The notes beneath the pieces were generated by a model. It was not told the DNA's origin. It made no database searches and saw only the letters and a program-made list of their open reading frames with translations. From IMG/VR virus record IMGVR_UViG_3300010219_000019, positions 1 to 5,758 of that record: a DNA stretch of 5,758 nt. One strand, given 5' to 3'. Of the stretch, positions 1-5,758 are shown in pieces. A program made the translations under genes and the position numbers. The stretch comes from a virus. The stretch's first letter is position 1, and each line of letters begins with the position of its first letter.

Positions 1-55
1 GGCTTTGGCGGCGGTTCGTGCCCGCAGGACATTACCGTGAGCGTGCAGGGCGGAA
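1..55. repeat. Terminal direct repeat, exact copy of 5704-5758 (circular-closure overlap)
   Basis: Base-by-base comparison shows ggctttggcggcggttcgtgcccgcaggacattaccgtgagcgtgcagggcggaa at both ends. Confidence 0.95.
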
Positions 56-189
56 CCTCGCTGAAGGTGTTTTCTTATGCCAAGGGTTGCGAGTTGGTGA
101 GCGGGTACGTAAAGCCCGTCGTTCTTCTGCTTTCCCTCTGGGCGGCGTACATCATTTTGATTCCGGGCGGACCGGGGAGGGTGGACTGA
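1..189 (+). CDS. C-terminal part of the pIII-like adsorption/minor coat protein. It continues the ORF that leaves the window at 5758; 1-55 duplicate 5704-5758.
   Basis: Position 5704 is a codon start in the frame of the 4435 ORF and equals position 1. Frame 1 then reads GFGGGSCPQDITVSVQGGTSLKVFSYAKGCELVSGYVKPVVLLLSLWAAYIILIPGGPGRVD and stops at TGA 187-189. The hydrophobic C-terminal anchor is typical of pIII-type proteins. The stop overlaps the next ATG (TGATG). Confidence 0.75.
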   Translation, partial: GFGGGSCPQDITVSVQGGTSLKVFSYAKGCELVSGYVKPVVLLLSLWAAYIILIPGGPGRVD

Positions 190-476
190 TGCGGCTTGGA
201 ACGTGGCTGCTTGCGATGCTTCAGCCGATGCTCGCCAAGGCGCTGGTCGCCTTGGGCTTTTCCGTGGTGTCCATCACCGGCCTTCAGGCCATCACCGATA
301 ACCTCAAGTCGCAGGCGACTAGCGCACTCGGGCTGCTCTCTCCTGAGATGCTCAATCTTTTTCTTCTGGCTGGTGGCGCGCAGGGCCTCGGGATCATTCT
401 CGGCGCCTGTACGACCAAGCTCATGCTCTGGCAGATCCAGTCCGCAACCAAGATCCTCGGCACTAACCCGGGATAG
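189..476 (+). CDS. pVI-like small integral membrane protein (95 aa), of the type found immediately upstream of zot in many inoviruses (DUF2523-like, recalled not searched)
   Basis: ATG at 189 follows GGAGG (176-180) with an 8-nt spacer. The start overlaps the pIII stop by 1 nt. The product is very hydrophobic (MRLGTWLLAMLQPMLAKALVALGFSVV...GLGIILGACTTKLMLW). It lies between the pIII-like and pI-like genes. The GTG-18 extension in the ORF track overlaps the pIII C-terminus and is not needed. Confidence 0.7.
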   Translation: MRLGTWLLAMLQPMLAKALVALGFSVVSITGLQAITDNLKSQATSALGLLSPEMLNLFLLAGGAQGLGIILGACTTKLMLWQIQSATKILGTNPG

Positions 477-506
477 CGCCGCCAAGCCCTTCGTAGGAGC
501 CACACT

Positions 507-1658
507 ATGCAAACCCTCATCACCGGTACGCCGGGCGCCGGAAAGACCCTCTACGCGATTCAGAGCCTCATCCTTCCCATGCTCGGTCAGGAGGTGACGT
601 ATATCGACGCGGATGGCGAGACTCACACTGTCAAGCGGAGGCTGTTCACCAACATCAAGGGTTTTCAAATCGACCATGAGTTGGTCGAGGCTGGTCCTGG
701 CTGGGATCACGGCACCAAGGGCGGCTGGAGCCAGCCGGACGGCAGCAACAAGAAGGGCTGGCACAACTGGCATGAGTGGGCGCCGGTCGGTGCCATCCTG
801 GTCGTTGACGAGTTCCAGCGCATCTGGCCGAAGCGCGCGAACGGTTCGCCGGTGCCGCCCGATGTGTCGGCCATGGACACACACCGGCATATGGGGGTGG
901 ACTTCATCCTCATCACCCAGAAATTCAGCTTCGACGGCCACATTGAGGGCCTGATCGGGCGCCATCTGCACGTGCGGCGGATTGCCATGATGCCGCTGGC
1001 TATCGTTTACGAGTGGGATGAGGTGTCGAAGTCTCGTCTGTACTCCAAGGCGATCCAGAAACGCCCGTTCCGCTACGACAAGAAGGTCTATCAGCTCTAT
1101 CACTCTGCGGACGCTCACACGAAGCAACCGCGCAAGGTGCCGACGCTGGTCTATGTCGTGCTGGCGGCGCTCGCGTTCGCGGCCTATCAGGTGCCGAACA
1201 GCTGGCAACGGATCACCGGCAAGGGTGAGGAATACGCTAAGCGGACATCTTCCGGGAAGACGACGACAGCGGCCCCGGCAGACCGGGCCAGCGCAGCGCC
1301 GCACGGTCTGCCGGGGCCGCTGGCGGCGGCGTCCGCTCCTTCGGTCGCTGCTGCGGTTCCTGCCGGGCCGGTGCACATGGGGTGTATTGCGTCGGCCTCG
1401 AGGTGTGAGTGTTTCGGGCAGACCGGGGAACGGATCAATGTCGAGGAAAACGAGTGCCGGGAAGCATCGCACCGCGTTTCGTATGTCCTGGGGGGGTATG
1501 GGGCATCGCCCCATGGTGAACGTTCGGCGGGGTACCCGCTGAACCGGCCGGAGCCTGTTTCGTCGGTGCCGTCCGCGCCTTCACCTGGCGCTAGTGCTCC
1601 TGTGGTGTCGGAACGTGGGCACAATCTCAAGCCACCGATGCCGGTTTCATCGTCCTAG
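507..1658 (+). CDS. zot: Zot / pI-family phage assembly ATPase (383 aa)
   Basis: Walker A GTPGAGKT (525-548). Walker B ILVVDE (795-812). A central TM segment (VPTLVYVVLAALAFAAYQV) is followed by an Ala/Pro-rich, Cys-containing C-terminal domain. TAGGAG (494-499) plus a 7-nt spacer precedes the ATG. Confidence 0.9.
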   Translation: MQTLITGTPGAGKTLYAIQSLILPMLGQEVTYIDADGETHTVKRRLFTNIKGFQIDHELVEAGPGWDHGTKGGWSQPDGSNKKGWHNWHEWAPVGAILVVDEFQRIWPKRANGSPVPPDVSAMDTHRHMGVDFILITQKFSFDGHIEGLIGRHLHVRRIAMMPLAIVYEWDEVSKSRLYSKAIQKRPFRYDKKVYQLYHSADAHTKQPRKVPTLVYVVLAALAFAAYQVPNSWQRITGKGEEYAKRTSSGKTTTAAPADRASAAPHGLPGPLAAASAPSVAAAVPAGPVHMGCIASASRCECFGQTGERINVEENECREASHRVSYVLGGYGASPHGERSAGYPLNRPEPVSSVPSAPSPGASAPVVSERGHNLKPPMPVSSS

Positions 1659-2046
1659 AAAACAGACTGCGGCCCTTGTGCCATCCCGCAGTTAATACGA
1701 TGCATATTCCGTCAATCACCTTCTGACGCAATTCCCCAACGCTCTCTGTTGCGGAAGTGACGAAAATCTCCGGCCCGCCAGCCAAAAAACCCCCCTTCAT
1801 CACGTCGAGAATTTGGCGGCCTTCCTCTGTTTTCGCAAGTTGATCTTGCGATCTGGCTAGCAACGCTTCTTCGATGCGTACGCCCGCGATGATGGCCATC
1901 TTTCCGATGTGCACCTCTGTGGGAACGCTTTTCCCCATCTTCCAATCCGTCAGCAGTTGACGCGATACGCCGAGTTTCCCGGCAAGCTTGGACCGCGACC
2001 CGCATACTTTCGCCGCCCTGTCAATAAGTGTTTTAGTAAGTTCCAT
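1627..2046 (-). CDS. Cro/CI-type helix-turn-helix transcriptional repressor (139 aa), the only minus-strand gene
   Basis: ATG at 2046 follows GGAGG (complement of 2052-2056) with a 5-nt spacer. The GTG at 2052 given in the track overlaps this SD, so it is unlikely to be the start. The N-terminal HTH-like segment is GSRSKLAGKLGVSRQLLTDWKMGK. The gene is divergent from the replication/structural operon, as in other temperate inoviruses. Confidence 0.75.
   Translation of the reverse strand: MELTKTLIDRAAKVCGSRSKLAGKLGVSRQLLTDWKMGKSVPTEVHIGKMAIIAGVRIEEALLARSQDQLAKTEEGRQILDVMKGGFLAGGPEIFVTSATESVGELRQKVIDGICIVLTAGWHKGRSLFSRTMKPASVA
1666..1692. terminator. Candidate bidirectional hairpin between the convergent zot and repressor genes (ACTGCGG, 13-nt loop, CCGCAGT)
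   Basis: A 7-bp perfect stem (1666-1672 / 1686-1692) starts 8 nt after the zot stop. On the - strand it is followed by CTGTTTTCT. On the + strand there is no U-run, only relatively AT-rich sequence. The hairpin lies inside the last ~20 codons of the repressor ORF, which argues against simple termination of that transcript. Confidence 0.3.
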
Positions 2047-2111
2047 GTCCACCTCCGGCTGAGCTACGCTCCGGGCGTCAGAACATGTCTGACGTTTCTA
2101 GGAGCCACAAT
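2047..2111. promoter_or_regulatory. Divergent control region between the repressor and the ssDNA-binding gene. It is the longest non-coding stretch in the genome.
   Basis: Position between two divergent starts, each with its own SD. It contains the inverted repeat at 2076-2094 and two CTCCGG direct repeats (2053-2058 and 2069-2074). I could not assign convincing -35/-10 hexamers by eye. Confidence 0.5.
2076..2094. promoter_or_regulatory. Candidate operator: inverted repeat CGTCAGA-acatg-TCTGACG
   Basis: Perfect 7-bp arms with a 5-nt spacer, 6 nt upstream of the ssDNA-binding gene SD. The geometry suits a dimeric HTH repressor. Confidence 0.45.
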
Positions 2112-2396
2112 ATGATCCGTATCACCGTTCCGGCCCTGCCGGTTCGCAACATGAAGGGCATCGGCAAGACCAGCCAGAAGCCCTACGACCTCAACATCCA
2201 GACCGTCTATTGTCACGTCGCTGACGAGAACGGCAAGGCCCTTCCGTTCCCGGAAAAGTCGGAGGTGATCCTCGACGCTGGCCAGTCGCCCTTCGTTCCC
2301 GGCGACTACACCTTGTCCCCCGCCTCGCTGTACGTCGATCGTCAAGGTCGGCTCGCGGTGGCTCCCAAGCTGGTCCCGATCGCGTCGAAGTCCTGA
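2112..2396 (+). CDS. Gene V-like ssDNA-binding protein (94 aa)
   Basis: TAGGAG (2099-2104) plus a 7-nt spacer precedes ATG 2112, which fits better than the upstream ATG 2085 lying inside the operator. It is a small protein and the first gene of the + operon. From memory it resembles the Pf3-type ssDNA-binding protein (KPYDL, PFP, PGDYTL, RQGRLAV segments). This is unverified. Confidence 0.6.
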   Translation: MIRITVPALPVRNMKGIGKTSQKPYDLNIQTVYCHVADENGKALPFPEKSEVILDAGQSPFVPGDYTLSPASLYVDRQGRLAVAPKLVPIASKS

Positions 2397-2413
2397 GCGG
2401 GGGACACCCTCTC

Positions 2414-2602
2414 ATGGTGGACGCATACCACGCTGCGCGCTTGGTGGCCGTAGAGGCTGCCTTGCGCTCGTTGCTGGCTGAGGCCCAGACCTCGGACGCT
2501 CACGATGCGCCGGACGCGGTTGAAGCTGCGTTCACGGCTGACGGTGGGCTCGATGTGACCTACACCCGGCACGGGGTGCCGGTGAGCGGGGAGGGCATGT
2601 GA
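2414..2602 (+). CDS. Hypothetical small acidic Ala-rich protein (62 aa, net charge about -7)
   Basis: ATG follows GGGGGA (2399-2404). My hand count of third-position GC is roughly 80 percent. The stop overlaps the next start (ATGTGA). Confidence 0.55.
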   Translation: MVDAYHAARLVAVEAALRSLLAEAQTSDAHDAPDAVEAAFTADGGLDVTYTRHGVPVSGEGM

Positions 2603-2745
2603 GCAGGCAAGCCCGCTACCTCCGGTTGCTCGCATCGTGGTGCTCTTGGAGTGCGGAGGAACAGGATCGCCTGTCGTCGCGCGACCTTTGGGCCTTCGAT
2701 CAACTGCGCGCGCAAGCTGCGCACCTCATCGGGTTTATGGCATGA
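2599..2745 (+). CDS. Hypothetical protein (48 aa, GTG start), below the ORF-track size cutoff
   Basis: GTG 2599 is the first possible start after an in-frame stop at 2539. GGAGG (2590-2594) lies just upstream. The start overlaps the previous stop and the ORF's stop overlaps the next ATG (ATGA). Third-position GC is about three quarters in this frame and about half in the competing 2637 frame. The product is MSRQARYLRLLASWCSWSAEEQDRLSSRDLWAFDQLRAQAAHLIGFMA. Confidence 0.45.
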   Translation: MSRQARYLRLLASWCSWSAEEQDRLSSRDLWAFDQLRAQAAHLIGFMA

Positions 2746-2936
2746 ACTCGTCGTCGTTCAAGCAGTGGCGCGGCGGCATCGGGTCGCGCTGGCATCTTCG
2801 CATCGCCGGGTACTCCGGGCACATCGTTCAGGTCGTCAACGACTTTGGCGACCTCGTTGCGGTGTCGGGTCAGTGCCGCCGTGTTCGCCTTGCTCGCTAC
2901 GTCATGAAGTACGCGCGGAAGGTCGGCGCGGCATGA
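2742..2936 (+). CDS. Hypothetical 64-aa protein ending in a copy of the Rep active-site tyrosine motif (RYVMKYARK)
   Basis: Internal ATG of track ORF 2637-2936, overlapping the previous stop (ATGA). Third-position GC is above 80 percent by hand count. The C-terminal ARYVMKYARKVGAA matches Rep VRYVMKYASKFDSK. Confidence 0.55.
   Translation: MNSSSFKQWRGGIGSRWHLRIAGYSGHIVQVVNDFGDLVAVSGQCRRVRLARYVMKYARKVGAA
2898..2914 (+). repeat. Exact 17-nt repeat tacgtcatgaagtacgc, copy 1 (copy 2 at 3655-3671)
   Basis: Direct comparison. Both copies are read in frame as YVMKYA. Confidence 0.9.
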
Positions 2937-3082
2937 GGCGCGGCTATCTCACTGATTCGCGCTGGGGCGTCTACTGCGACGGCTGCGGCCTATCTCGCTG
3001 GGCGCGCTCGCTGCTCACGCGGCATCTGCCCGTGTGCGACGAGCATGGTTGCTGGCGCATCGAGTGCGGGTGCTCGGCATGA
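2933..3082 (+). CDS. Small Cys-rich putative zinc-finger protein (49 aa)
   Basis: Internal ATG of track ORF 2651-3082, overlapping the previous stop (ATGA). High third-position GC. The Cys pattern is C15-x2-C18-x16-C35-x4-C40, with additional C45, C47, H31 and H38. Confidence 0.55.
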   Translation: MRRGYLTDSRWGVYCDGCGLSRWARSLLTRHLPVCDEHGCWRIECGCSA

Positions 3083-3996
3083 GGCTGCACTCTGGCACCG
3101 GGGAGGCGCCGCGCAGCGGCGCTGGGGGGCTTGTCCCCAGCATCAACAAGGGGGAAACGCCCCGCAAGGGCCTTCGTGTTGCCCCGGGCGTTGGCCCCCG
3201 GCGTATGGAGACTTCGCGGGATCGGTTCAACGATCTCCGCGAGGGCAGGGTGACGGCGGAGGTCATCACGATTGACACCGTGGAAGCCCGTTGCACTCGC
3301 CTGCGCAAGAACCTCGGGGTCGCTGCCAAGTGGCTGTCTCAGGGGGAAGGGCACGCTTGGATGCTGACCCTCACCTATCGGGACGATGTGGAGTGGTCCC
3401 CCGGGCACGTGAAAGCCTGCATCGCGCATCTGCGTAAGTGGGTGGCGCGCACCTACGGCGGCGCGCTGCGGTATGTCTGGGTGATGGAAACGAAGGCGCG
3501 TCTTTCGGGAGGCAGGAAGGGCGAGTTCCGCCCGCATTACCACGTGGTGGTGTGGCTCCCCAAGGGTGTGCACGCGAGTTCGCTGCACCTCGATGAGAAG
3601 GGCTGGTGGCCTCACGGCATGACGAATGTTGTTCTGGCGGTTGCGCCGGTGCGGTACGTCATGAAGTACGCCAGCAAGTTCGACAGCAAGGACAGTTTTC
3701 CGAAGGGGGCAAGGTGCTATGGCGTTGGTGGCATGGGGTCTGTTGGTCGGCGTTGCCGTACTTGGATCAATCGCCCTCGTTTCGTGCAGGCGCGTGCTGA
3801 CATCTTCACCCGTGTCCGTCGAGCAGTCGGCGGCGGCTGGGATATTGGCGGCACTCACTACGCATCGGAGTGGGCTCTCGCCGGTCGCGGAGGCTCGCTT
3901 GCGCGCCTTGTGCGCGTCGTCACTCATCCCCCGACCGGCATCCAGCCGGACGGCCCGTTTTCCTTCCTCCGCGCTGGCTCCGCAGCGGCAGCGTGA
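3079..3996 (+). CDS. HUH rolling-circle replication initiator, two-tyrosine type (305 aa if it starts at 3079; alternative start ATG 3205)
   Basis: Motif 1 LTLTY (3364-3378). HUH motif HYHVVVW (3535-3555). Motif 3 YVMKY-ASK (3655-3669 onward). This layout resembles phiX174 gpA and P2 gpA (YVAKYVNK type). ATG 3079 overlaps the upstream stop (ATGA). The first ~40 codons are low-complexity and hairpin-rich, so the start is uncertain. Confidence 0.85.
   Translation: MRLHSGTGEAPRSGAGGLVPSINKGETPRKGLRVAPGVGPRRMETSRDRFNDLREGRVTAEVITIDTVEARCTRLRKNLGVAAKWLSQGEGHAWMLTLTYRDDVEWSPGHVKACIAHLRKWVARTYGGALRYVWVMETKARLSGGRKGEFRPHYHVVVWLPKGVHASSLHLDEKGWWPHGMTNVVLAVAPVRYVMKYASKFDSKDSFPKGARCYGVGGMGSVGRRCRTWINRPRFVQARADIFTRVRRAVGGGWDIGGTHYASEWALAGRGGSLARLVRVVTHPPTGIQPDGPFSFLRAGSAAAA
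3121..3241 (+). other. Cluster of GC-rich stem-loops: candidate origin, packaging signal or translational control element
   Basis: GCTGGGG-7nt-CCCCAGC (3121-3141). GGGG-aaacg-CCCC (3151-3163). GGGC-gttg-GCCC (3186-3197). CGCGGGATCG-gttcaa-CGATC(T)CCGCG, a 10-bp stem with one bulge (3215-3241). Confidence 0.4.
3655..3671 (+). repeat. Exact 17-nt repeat tacgtcatgaagtacgc, copy 2 (inside Rep motif 3)
   Basis: Identical to 2898-2914. Confidence 0.9.
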
Positions 3997-4028
3997 GGTT
4001 TTTCAATCCCTGCGGTAGGAGTGTTCTC

Positions 4029-4238
4029 ATGAAAAAGCAAATCGCCCTTCGCCTCGCCTCCATTCCGGCGTTCGTCCTCGCCACCATCGGCGGCGCGCAC
4101 GCTGCGGTGCCGGAAGGCGTGACTACGGCCATCACCTCGGCCGGCGCCGATCTGGTGACGGTCGTGACCGCCGTCATCGTGGCGTTCATCGCCTTTTGGG
4201 GCCTGCGCAAGCTGGGCGCCAAGTTCGGCTGGCTGTAA
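4029..4238 (+). CDS. Major coat protein (pVIII-like), a 69-aa precursor
   Basis: TAGGAG (4016-4021) plus a 7-nt spacer precedes ATG 4029. The signal peptide MKKQIALRLASIPAFVLATIGGAHA has an AHA-A cleavage site. The mature ~44 aa has an acidic N-terminus (E, D), a hydrophobic core (LVTVVTAVIVAFIAFWGL) and a basic C-terminus (RKLGAKFGWL). The track's 3870 start is an upstream extension overlapping rep. Confidence 0.85.
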   Translation: MKKQIALRLASIPAFVLATIGGAHAAVPEGVTTAITSAGADLVTVVTAVIVAFIAFWGLRKLGAKFGWL

Positions 4239-4256
4239 TCCGCCCGGGCGCTCTCC

Positions 4257-4442
4257 ATGGACCCGATCCAGACGACCAGCTGCACCGGTGAGTGCACCGT
4301 GACGCTGGTCGTGGAGAGCGCGCCCATCACCGTGGAGAACGCGGACGACCTCATGGGGATGTGGTGGGGTTTCATGGCGGCGCTGGCGGCCGTCTGGGGT
4401 CTCAAACGCATCTACGCACTTTTCAATTCCGACAATGGCTGA
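4257..4442 (+). CDS. Small coat-like membrane protein (61 aa), a candidate minor virion protein
   Basis: Very high third-position GC (about 87 percent by hand count). It has an acidic N-terminal half, one TM segment (MWWGFMAALAAVWGL) and then a basic KR. No signal peptide and no clear SD. It lies between the major coat and pIII-like genes. Confidence 0.6.
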   Translation: MDPIQTTSCTGECTVTLVVESAPITVENADDLMGMWWGFMAALAAVWGLKRIYALFNSDNG

Positions 4443-5758
4443 CCATGTTCAATCCGCAGGAAATGTTTTTCGCCGGTGGGCTGCTGCTGCTCTTGTGGGT
4501 CTGCTGGGGCTAGTCCTCGGCACGGCTCACGCGGGTTCGCTCACGCGCACCAATTACGGCGGCTTCGAAGTCCTCGGCTCCGGCAAGTCTTGGACCTTCG
4601 GCGACGCGAAGCCGCGACCTGGTGACATTGGCTGGGTTGATGACTACAACTACGGCGGCGGGTCGGCGAAGGCTGGCCCGTACTCCATGGGCGGCGACAG
4701 TTCCGGCCCTTATGCAAAGGCTCGCGGTACGCTGCCGATTCCAGGCTCCAACGGTCGTTCCGTTCCCGTCGATGTGACGGGGCGCATCCCCAAAAGTGGG
4801 GCGGGCAGTGCGGCGCGTGCCATTGGCACCTTCGCAGGCAAGATGCTTTATCCGGTGACTGCGGGCATGGCGATTTATGACCTGCTAAAAGACCTCGGCT
4901 ACATCGGCAAAGACATCGACGGCGACGGCCAGATTGACTGGATGAAGCCCGATCCGACGGCGGGGTGGTGCACCACGTCTCCGTGCTACGAATACAAGGC
5001 CGACGTTTTGGGACAGACGACCGGCCTCTATTACCGCACCGCGTCCGCTGCCTGCGATTCGGCCTTTGCGCTGTCGCCTCCTGCGGGTTACTCGCTGCGC
5101 AACAAGGCCTACGACCCGACCACGAACAGTAGCTATCCGTACGGGCGGTGTACCTATCAGTACAGCTACAACGGCGGCGCATGGACGTCCGCTAGTACGG
5201 TGGTTGGGGGCCGTACGCGTGCGGTCGACACTGGCACGGCCCCGGAGGTTGAGGCGTCTTTGCAGGAGCTTGAGGACAAGATTGCCAGCATGTCTGGCTG
5301 GCCTACTAAGGCGAACGCGGCGCTTGCGGATGCCATCAACAATGGTGAGTCCGTCGAGCATGCCTCCCCTACGGTCACTGGCCCATCCACCGTCGCGGGT
5401 GATACCACGACCAAACAGGAGCCCGCGCAGAAGGCGGACGGCACGCCGGGCACCAAGACGACCACGACCACGAACAACTACAACACTACCTATAACAACA
5501 ACACCGTGACGGTGACGCAGACGACGACGACGACTTCCACCACCGTCTACAGCGACGGCACCACTGAGACCAGCACGGAGACCGAAGAAAAAGAGCCTGA
5601 GTGCAAGGCCGAAGACAAGACGGTCGGTTGCGCGGAGATGGACGTTCCGGAGGGTGAGATTCCCAAGACTTCCAAGGCGCTCACGTATGCCGCGGAGGTT
5701 CTTGGCTTTGGCGGCGGTTCGTGCCCGCAGGACATTACCGTGAGCGTGCAGGGCGGAA
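4435..5758 (+). CDS. pIII-like adsorption / minor coat protein, N-terminal and central part. The ORF is open at the window end and continues at 56-189 (485 aa in total).
   Basis: It is absent from the ORF track because no stop is reached. ATG 4435 overlaps the stop of the previous gene (ATGGCTGA). The signal peptide is MADHVQSAGNVFRRWAAAALVGLLGLVLGTAHA-G. There is a Gly/Tyr-rich N-domain, a Thr/Asn-rich linker and a Cys-containing C-domain. Third-position GC is high throughout. The C-terminal region is reminiscent of TspB C-terminal-domain proteins of other inoviruses (recollection only). Confidence 0.75.
   Translation, partial: MADHVQSAGNVFRRWAAAALVGLLGLVLGTAHAGSLTRTNYGGFEVLGSGKSWTFGDAKPRPGDIGWVDDYNYGGGSAKAGPYSMGGDSSGPYAKARGTLPIPGSNGRSVPVDVTGRIPKSGAGSAARAIGTFAGKMLYPVTAGMAIYDLLKDLGYIGKDIDGDGQIDWMKPDPTAGWCTTSPCYEYKADVLGQTTGLYYRTASAACDSAFALSPPAGYSLRNKAYDPTTNSSYPYGRCTYQYSYNGGAWTSASTVVGGRTRAVDTGTAPEVEASLQELEDKIASMSGWPTKANAALADAINNGESVEHASPTVTGPSTVAGDTTTKQEPAQKADGTPGTKTTTTTNNYNTTYNNNTVTVTQTTTTTSTTVYSDGTTETSTETEEKEPECKAEDKTVGCAEMDVPEGEIPKTSKALTYAAEVLGFGGGSCPQDITVSVQGG
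5452..5583 (+). repeat. Low-complexity Thr/Asn-coding tract with short tandem repeats, including (ACG)4 at 5521-5532 and ACGACC repeats at 5458-5472
   Basis: It translates as TKTTTTTNNYNTTYNNNTVTVTQTTTTTSTTVYSDGTTETSTET, an interdomain linker of the pIII-like protein. Confidence 0.8.
5704..5758. repeat. Terminal direct repeat, exact copy of 1-55
   Basis: See feature 1-55. Confidence 0.95.

Follow-up and report, generated by a model that had tools for sequence, protein, structure and literature searches.

The DNA analyzed here is record IMGVR_UViG_3300010219_000019 of the IMG/VR collection, a stretch of 5,758 nucleotides (nt) that we refer to, at its full length, as the window. As seen in Table 1, the window contains a rep gene, coding for a superfamily I HUH replication initiator (Rep), and within the 5' end of this gene lies a short conserved DNA element flanked by hairpins, a candidate origin of plus-strand replication and the main subject of this work. 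Bases 1 to 55 are identical to bases 5704 to 5758, an exact 55-nt end match that indicates a circular genome of 5,703 nt, with a G+C content of 63%. Since the circle falls within the range of ~5 to 10 kb and carries a gene I/Zot ATPase, a gene V protein, and a coat protein, we identify the window as the complete circular genome of a very compact inovirus from a Burkholderiales-associated clade.

The Rep protein carries an HYH motif followed by a two-tyrosine YVMKY motif, and both H168-Y169-H170 and Y208-V209-M210-K211-Y212 were invariant in 31 homologs. The preliminary description of this DNA had assigned to Rep a motif set like that of phiX174, and the alignment bears this out. By analogy with such initiators, this Rep would nick DNA at a specific site and become covalently attached to it. 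The nearest annotated Reps are the gpII proteins of the Xanthomonas phages Cf1c, XacF1, phiLf, Xf109, Xf409, and phiXv2, with ~34% identity (34% for phiLf and Cf1c). When the whole genome was searched by blastn against 50,697 phage records, no DNA-level match was found, and no sequence-related protein was present among solved structures. A scan of genome contigs with the single Rep protein as the query found nothing, and an alignment-based Rep scan of genome contigs recovered four prophages only. Related prophages belong to Saezia, Aquabacterium, and Caldimonas, all Burkholderiales, and to Rhodanobacter.

In the alignment of Rep homologs, an N-terminal peptide, GLVPSINN, is nearly invariant, while its flanks vary in length and content. 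The DNA coding for this peptide is a 24-mer, GGGCTTGTCCCCAGTATCAACAAC, which was almost invariant in 26 distinct group-1 loci with Reps ~50 to 67% identical to one another; the window copy differs from it at two positions. Third codon positions are 95% conserved in the 24-mer versus 57 to 83% in the invariant Rep motifs, and some codons of the 24-mer (CTT and AGT) are seldom used in a genome this rich in GC. In a distant group, with Reps ~40% identical, a 1-nt deletion has given rise to a 23-nt variant, GGGCTTGTC-TCAGTATCAACAAC, so that the peptide GLVPSINN becomes GLVSVSTT and the DNA remains essentially unchanged. Since this deletion alters the peptide and yet keeps the DNA, the constraint acts on the DNA. 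About 96 IMG/VR contigs, of a size typical of inoviruses, carried the core, usually as one copy per contig, and the pattern of the core was nearly confined to the coding strand, with two minus-strand matches in 432 kb. Across 12 representatives, aligned over window positions 3106 to 3150 and positions 280 to 325 of phiLf-UK, GGGCTTGT and AACAA were invariant.

The relation of this element to the reading frame of Rep was equally regular. With IMG/VR matches included, 98 distinct loci could be compared; in 96 of them the element was in frame 0 with Rep and no stop codon came between it and the HUH motif. The spacer that follows the element ranges from 19 to 54 codons up to the RLRKNLG motif (group 1) and from 93 to 147 codons up to the HUH motif (98 loci), always in whole codons.

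A hairpin with a GNA triloop is located directly upstream of the core in 78 of the 98 loci (GCA in 47, GAA in 26, GTA in 4, and GGA in 1), and the loop is always closed by a C-G pair. The stem of this hairpin covaries: 91% of the cells are paired, and 50 double-sided changes were counted versus 17 expected, with the caveat that the inner four pairs had served as a selection criterion. Downstream of the core, most relatives have a small hairpin with a GAAA-type loop, which often pairs with the CAAC of the core. In the window, the hairpin cluster is real and of moderate overall stability, with a z score of -2.0 for positions 3085 to 3250, and the last of its hairpins, at 3215 to 3241, sits in a Rep insert of ~30 codons common only to the closest relative. 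The preliminary description had pointed to positions 3121 to 3241 as a candidate origin site; this range does contain the core, but the upstream hairpin falls just outside it.

Next, the element was compared with origins that have been mapped by experiment. In phiLf-UK, the hairpin GGCCAGCGC-GCA-GCGCTGGCC (positions 280 to 300) is followed by GGGCTTGTCC-ATTACAA-AACAAG (304 to 325), inside gII (coding sequence, 1 to 1041). Cf1c has the same core, GGGCTTGTCC...AACAAG, and its upstream repeat, GGCCAGCGCTGGCC, lacks the triloop. An ungapped search of phiLf and Cf1c with the 24-mer (up to 9 mismatches) had missed this homolog, because the middle of their core differs and is 1 nt shorter; the bipartite pattern recovered it. 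In phiLf, nt 245 to 365 support gII-dependent replication and packaging (Yeh et al. 2023, bioRxiv 10.1101/2023.12.30.573655, building on Lin and Tseng 1996). In phiLf-UK, deletion of stem-loop SL2 (273 to 306) or SL3 (307 to 331) abolishes gII-dependent replication, and SL4 (332 to 357) is the packaging signal, the deletion of which affects packaging only (bioRxiv 10.1101/2023.12.30.573655). The same study describes CTTG as the recognition sequence of superfamily I Reps, a GNA triloop hairpin, and a putative nick at G304 (bioRxiv 10.1101/2023.12.30.573655). Given the shared core and hairpin inside gII, the window element is a homolog of a functionally mapped intragenic origin.

The window thus shares with phiLf/phiLf-UK, Cf1c, and XacF1 a homologous Rep (PF23343, with HYH and YxxKY) and a core of the form GGGCTTGTCC-N7/8-AACAAG; a C-GCA-G triloop hairpin precedes this core in phiLf-UK and not in Cf1c. 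In both types the element precedes the catalytic core and falls in the N-terminal extension of rep, which is variable, and no Ff-type intergenic region is present. They differ in the middle of the core (ATTACAA in the phiLf type versus CCAGCATC in the window) and in gene order, with gene V and the small open reading frames (ORFs) preceding rep in the window, unlike in the phiLf type. The window genome is also smaller, its host clade is Burkholderiales-like and not Xanthomonas, and it is known from its sequence alone. An origin inside gII has already been shown by experiment in the phiLf-type Xanthomonas phages, and the principle is therefore not new here.

The organization of the genome leaves little space for an origin elsewhere. 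The noncoding runs are 477 to 506 (30 nt), 2053 to 2111 (59 nt, or 65 nt if the repressor gene starts at the ATG at 2046), 2397 to 2413 (17 nt), 3997 to 4028 (32 nt), and 4239 to 4256 (18 nt), a total of 156 nt, or 2.7% of the genome. The gap sizes of 30, 65, 17, 32, and 18 nt in the preliminary description were reproduced by our gene calls, and its statement that an intergenic region of ~500 nt, as in Ff phages, is missing holds as well, the largest noncoding run being 59 to 65 nt. The short gaps hold AGGAG ribosome-binding sites. In the largest one, between the repressor gene and gene V, a perfect 7-bp dyad (2075 to 2093) is overlapped by the sole sigma-70-like match of the genome (2089 to 2116). 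The dyad is likely, from its sequence and position, an operator for the helix-turn-helix (HTH) protein, and with both sites in place this gap is already taken up by regulation. Periodicity of the G+C content at third codon positions (GC3) supports every called frame, including the four small ORFs between gene V and rep and positions 3079 to 3204 of rep itself. Since no other region could hold an origin outside the genes, any origin in this genome would have to be intragenic.

Overall, DNA-level conservation, the relation to the reading frame, stem covariation, and homology to a mapped origin make it quite probable that rolling-circle replication of the plus strand originates within the first part of the rep coding sequence, at ~3106 to 3163. 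The origin would be composed of the GCA-triloop hairpin (3106 to 3122), the 24-nt core (3127 to 3150), and the small downstream hairpin. The preliminary description had proposed an origin embedded in the initiator gene, and core conservation, reading frame, and phiLf homology support that part of its reasoning, which nevertheless does not place the packaging signal or the minus-strand origin. By analogy with phiX174 gpA and phiLf gpII, the flanking inverted repeats of negatively supercoiled replicative-form DNA could extrude, and the core would thereby become single stranded in its 5' half. The two-tyrosine HUH Rep would then bind the core and cut the plus strand beside CTTG, probably between G3133 and T3134, attaching covalently through a tyrosine of YVMKY, and rolling-circle synthesis would follow. 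The nick is placed at this position because that of phiX174 is annotated right after CAACTTG and because the CTTG of the core is the only universally conserved one. The element would be translated within the variable N-terminal extension of Rep, with the encoded peptide being incidental.

Several observations weigh against this assignment. For the window phage the evidence comes entirely from sequence, and the position of the nick is predicted; moreover, the phiLf nick at G304 is itself putative and is part of a CTTG farther upstream, which is not a conserved feature of the window's family. The source annotation starts Rep at the ATG at 3205 (P0001, 263 amino acids), which would leave the origin element in a 122-nt gap. 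Two of the 98 loci depart from the rule on reading frame: in L031 (1485) the element is in another frame, still open, and in L088 (1338) a stop codon follows 11 codons past the element. These exceptions may reflect sequencing errors or a truly different rep start. Features that accompany the origin in phiLf-type phages were also missing. The phiLf packaging consensus, GGX(A/-)CCG(C/T)G, matched the window only at 1990 (plus strand) and 5242 (minus strand), neither near the origin. PSB15 was not recognized, either as a DUF3653 match in Pfam among the 13 window proteins or as a WAGFxF-like motif in the six-frame translation; with both the consensus and PSB15 absent, the analogy with phiLf in packaging is positional only.

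Table 1. Features of the 5,758-nt window and their coordinates
Feature	Positions	Strand	Remarks
Terminal redundancy of the circular assembly	1-55		Same as 5704-5758; pIII-like ORF reads through the junction
pVI-like minor coat protein (DUF2523)	189-476	+	Pfam PF10734, E = 2e-13; GC3 phase agrees
Gene I/Zot-like assembly ATPase (pI)	507-1658	+	Pfam PF05707, E = 4e-21; PHROG 197, E = 4e-59
Most stable ssDNA hairpin of the genome	1255-1335	+	Inside gene I; perfect 19-bp core, 1267-1285 with 1304-1322
HTH repressor-like protein	1627-2052 (or 2046 start)	-	Pfam HTH_3/YdaS/CI-repressor matches; PHROG 638, E = 2e-11
Largest gap, divergent promoter/operator region	2053-2111		Dyad CGTCAGA-ACATG-TCTGACG and promoter-like site
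Gene V single-stranded DNA (ssDNA)-binding protein	2112-2396	+	Pfam PF02303, E = 2e-10; PHROG 1199
Four small ORFs with overlapping stop/start codons	2414-2602, 2599-2745, 2742-2936, 2933-3082	+	GC3 phase fits each
17-mer, copy 1	2898-2914	+	In orphan ORF3 (2742-2936); encodes YVMKYA
rep, superfamily I HUH initiator	3079-3996	+	Pfam PF23343, E = 3e-26; HYH and two-tyrosine YVMKY
Putative origin hairpin 1, GCGCCGC-GCA-GCGGCGC	3106-3122	+	7-bp stem, GNA triloop closed by C-G pair
Putative origin core, GGGCTTGTCCCCAGCATCAACAAG	3127-3150	+	Conserved CTTG at 3130-3133
Origin-proximal hairpins	3151-3163 (GGGG-AAACG-CCCC); 3150-3162 paired with 3186-3198	+	Predicted by folding; the second is longer and imperfect
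Hairpin CGCGGGATCG-GTTCAA-CGATCTCCGCG	3215-3241	+	Centroid fold; second packaging-signal candidate
17-mer, copy 2	3655-3671	+	In the rep catalytic motif Y-V-M-K-Y-A
Candidate +1-frame gene overlapping the rep 3' end	3719-4018	+	99 amino acids; N-terminal hydrophobic helix
Major coat protein, inovirus type	4029-4238	+	Pfam PF05356, E = 5e-8
Second most stable hairpin of the genome	4248-4321	+	dG = -30.8 kcal/mol, z = -4.8; inverted repeats I2, I12
Small hydrophobic protein, gVII/gIX position	4257-4442	+	GC3 = 0.95; homologs in 2 loci
pIII-like adsorption protein with signal peptide	4435, across the junction, to 189	+	485 amino acids; homologs in 16 loci

The annotated start at 3205 corresponds to a different reading of the same origin, in which positions 3083 to 3204 would be a short conventional intergenic region. 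A homolog, P0004, is likewise called short (240 amino acids), and a clear Shine-Dalgarno sequence is present at neither 3079 nor 3205. Nevertheless, the element is in frame and open in nearly all loci, with spacers that vary by whole codons only, and the GC3 phase in positions 3061 to 3240 fits the rep frame. The ATG at 3079 is coupled to the preceding ORF by an ATGA overlap, and rep of the closest relative (L067) is called with the same overlap, upstream of the element. In phiLf, too, the origin and the packaging signal are treated as coding, and in a later preprint mutations of the packaging signal are handled as synonymous changes in gII. A noncoding origin upstream of 3205 is therefore improbable; Rep likely starts at the ATG at 3079 and is translated through the origin, as suggested by frame conservation, the GC3 phase, and the call in L067, and by frame conservation the starts called downstream of the element in P0001 and P0004 are probably too short. 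Another function for the 24-mer and its hairpins, as a packaging signal, a minus-strand origin, or an operator in the rep mRNA for the gene V protein, seems still harder to sustain. Such a role would be in line with the position of the element directly after the rep start codon, with the gene V protein operator that the gene II leader of Ff phages bears, and with the packaging signal of phiLf, which immediately adjoins the origin. However, in phiLf it is the deletion of the stem-loops with this exact core that abolishes replication, while deletion of the adjacent SL4 hits packaging only; the core carries the CTTG recognized by superfamily I Reps and shares its pattern and spacing with the bipartite core bound by pII in M13; and GNA triloops belong to DNA and not to RNA.

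An origin outside the rep 5' end, either at a duplicated 17-mer or in the small-ORF region (2414 to 3082) as an unrecognized intergenic region, was also considered, and we regard it as extremely improbable. The exact 17-mer TACGTCATGAAGTACGC occurs at 2898 and 3655, and ~0.003 such pairs are expected by chance, so that a chance origin of this direct repeat is improbable. Similarity between the copies is nevertheless limited to positions 2895 to 2925 and 3652 to 3682 (26 of 31 nt), and both encode RYVMKYA(R/S)K in frame, the copy in rep being the invariant catalytic motif. Conservation of the rep copy as DNA throughout the family is accounted for by amino acid invariance and codon bias. The 17-mer, which the preliminary description had listed as an origin candidate, thus corresponds to codons of the catalytic tyrosines and a 31-nt patch in an orphan ORF, without origin-like features. 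This patch could be a recombination scar or a microduplication; the possibility that ORF3 and ORF4 are a decayed partial copy of rep was rejected, because the similarity stops after the 31-nt YVMKY patch. As for the small-ORF region, the preliminary description had conceded that it might turn out to be untranslated and to hold the origin and packaging hairpins. Instead, ORF 2414-2602 codes for a protein conserved over its full length (44 to 52% identity, 18 related loci), ORF 2599-2745 is conserved in 2 loci, and GC3 supports coding throughout the region, although ORFs 2742-2936 and 2933-3082 had no relatives and are called coding on GC3 alone. None of the four matched Pfam or PHROG. The region also lacks any unusually stable or conserved DNA structure (fold z scores of -1 to -1.9), and the closest relative has one small ORF only at this position.

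An origin in the 5' end of rep can be related to three further systems. Like Rep of the window, gpA of phiX174 is a two-tyrosine superfamily I HUH initiator (Y-x-x-K-Y), with its origin within its own gene A and a CTTG at the nick. In addition, gene B is embedded out of frame in A, and rep of the window may likewise embed a gene. In contrast, phiX174 belongs to another realm (Microviridae versus Inoviridae) and has another morphology; its origin lies in the middle of the gene and has no flanking hairpins, and the two sequences are alike only in CTTG and in an A-rich 3' part. Rep also falls in the same Pfam family as G2P of the Ff phages M13, f1, and fd (PF23343). The M13 origin consists of a hairpin followed by CTTGTTCC-AAACTGG-AACAAC, which has the same bipartite pattern and 21-nt span as CTTGTCCC-CAGCATC-AACAAG of the window, as would fit two Reps of one family. 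Ff phages differ in having their packaging signal and minus- and plus-strand origins in an intergenic region of ~500 nt, with no counterpart in the window, and in being nicked in an 11-nt loop of the upstream hairpin, the counterpart of which in the window is a 3-nt GNA triloop. Gene A of P2 likewise contains the origin used by its product, a two-tyrosine HUH initiator; P2, unlike the window inovirus, is a double-stranded DNA myovirus.

Regarding packaging, the hairpins at 3150 to 3198 and 3215 to 3241 are the positional equivalent of the phiLf packaging signal, the former corresponding to SL4, and the origin-adjacent region is the top-ranked structure in several relatives and in phiLf-UK. By analogy, the packaging signal is most likely one of these origin-adjacent hairpins (3150 to 3241). 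A genome-wide ssDNA fold, as the preliminary description had suggested, placed the strongest hairpin of the genome elsewhere, at 1255 to 1335, a site that had gone unmentioned. With a folding energy (dG) of -44.8 kcal/mol and a z score of -9.7, this hairpin ranked first among 282 windows by z score, and none of 200 shuffles was as stable. It is encoded in an Ala/Pro-rich linker that follows the transmembrane segment of the gene I protein. A match of the hairpin to a microRNA family in Rfam was spurious, being below threshold (E = 0.13; 23 bits versus a gathering score of 86). The candidate roles of the gene I hairpin are minus-strand origin and packaging signal.

That the gene I hairpin, and not the origin-adjacent ones, serves as the packaging signal appears to us rather unlikely, although several features speak for it. 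Nothing else in the genome approaches it in stability, and with 34-nt arms around its perfect core it is comparable in size to the long packaging hairpins of Ff and Ike, which have stems of 22 to 24 bp; the PSB15 and packaging consensus of phiLf are absent from this phage; and at the corresponding site of gene I, Cf1c (z = -8.0), Xf109, and Xf409 have strong hairpins of unrelated sequence. The inovirus RIP1, an RSM-type phage with a conventional long hairpin (PMC10975378), offered no guidance here. Cf1c, however, has its gene I hairpin and yet a short gII hairpin sufficed for packaging. By raw folding energies the linker hairpin seemed to recur in about half of the relatives, but by dinucleotide-shuffle z scores it took first place in no genome but the window and Cf1c and came third in L008, so that after this control of composition only 2 to 3 of 14 genomes rank it near the top, and the family-wide enrichment was not significant. 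The gene I hairpin could equally be the minus-strand origin or be functionless. Packaging from an origin-adjacent hairpin remains the preferred assignment.

The 3' end of rep may hold a second layer of coding. Over the last ~90 to 100 rep codons, the +1 frame was free of stop codons in 19 of 25 loci versus ~8 expected from randomization of synonymous codons, and the density of +1 stops was 0.31 per 100 codons in the overlap versus 2.95 upstream. The ATG of the window ORF arises from the invariant C-Y-G of Rep, written as TGC-TAT-GGC. This tyrosine is encoded by TAT in 23 of 25 loci, although the remaining Tyr codons in the same genes are 24% TAT and 76% TAC; within the group to which the window belongs, 20 of 21 loci of the enlarged set have TAT. 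The product had no Pfam match. Because Rep itself is conserved, the +1-frame proteins are bound to resemble each other from locus to locus, and the loci share ancestry. We therefore treat this ORF as a candidate and a lead, not as a proven gene. The combined proposition, that the gene I hairpin is a second cis element (minus-strand origin or packaging signal) and that rep also encodes a new +1-frame protein, is put forward only tentatively.

Other features of the genome are listed in Table 1. The pIII-like adsorption protein had no Pfam match. As for a dif-like attP, such as XerCD-integrating inoviruses and the phiLf-type phages have, no match with up to 3 mismatches to the E. coli-type dif or to the Xanthomonas attP core was found in the window, and the dif of the host may differ. 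The HTH repressor gene converges on the 3' end of gene I, with a 32-nt overlap. The repressor module (1627 to 2100) has a G+C content of ~0.50 to 0.55, versus 0.63 overall, and weak GC3 periodicity, which suggests that it was acquired separately. The second most stable hairpin of the genome is imperfect and ~74 nt long; it starts 10 nt past the coat-gene stop, and the start codon of the following gene (ATG at 4257) is sequestered within it. Lacking a T-run, the hairpin is not a classical terminator, and it may attenuate the expression of the downstream minor proteins.

What is new here is the definition of the origin at the DNA level throughout a family, together with its reading-frame evidence, the gene I hairpin, and the candidate overlapping gene. 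An origin design known by experiment only in the phiLf-type phages of Xanthomonas would thereby extend to a large, mostly uncultivated clade of about 100 contigs and prophages, and an origin placed within rep would explain how a filamentous phage of 5.7 kb copes with 2.7% noncoding DNA. The invariant core and the GNA hairpin provide a simple DNA signature for finding origins in such genomes and, in the window, a prediction of the nick site. The gene I hairpin and the +1-frame ORF offer leads on the minus-strand origin, the packaging signal, and hidden coding in inoviruses that are not of the Ff type. If true, a cis element in gene I and a gene overlapping rep would amount to a phiX174-like overlap of genes and signals in an inovirus.

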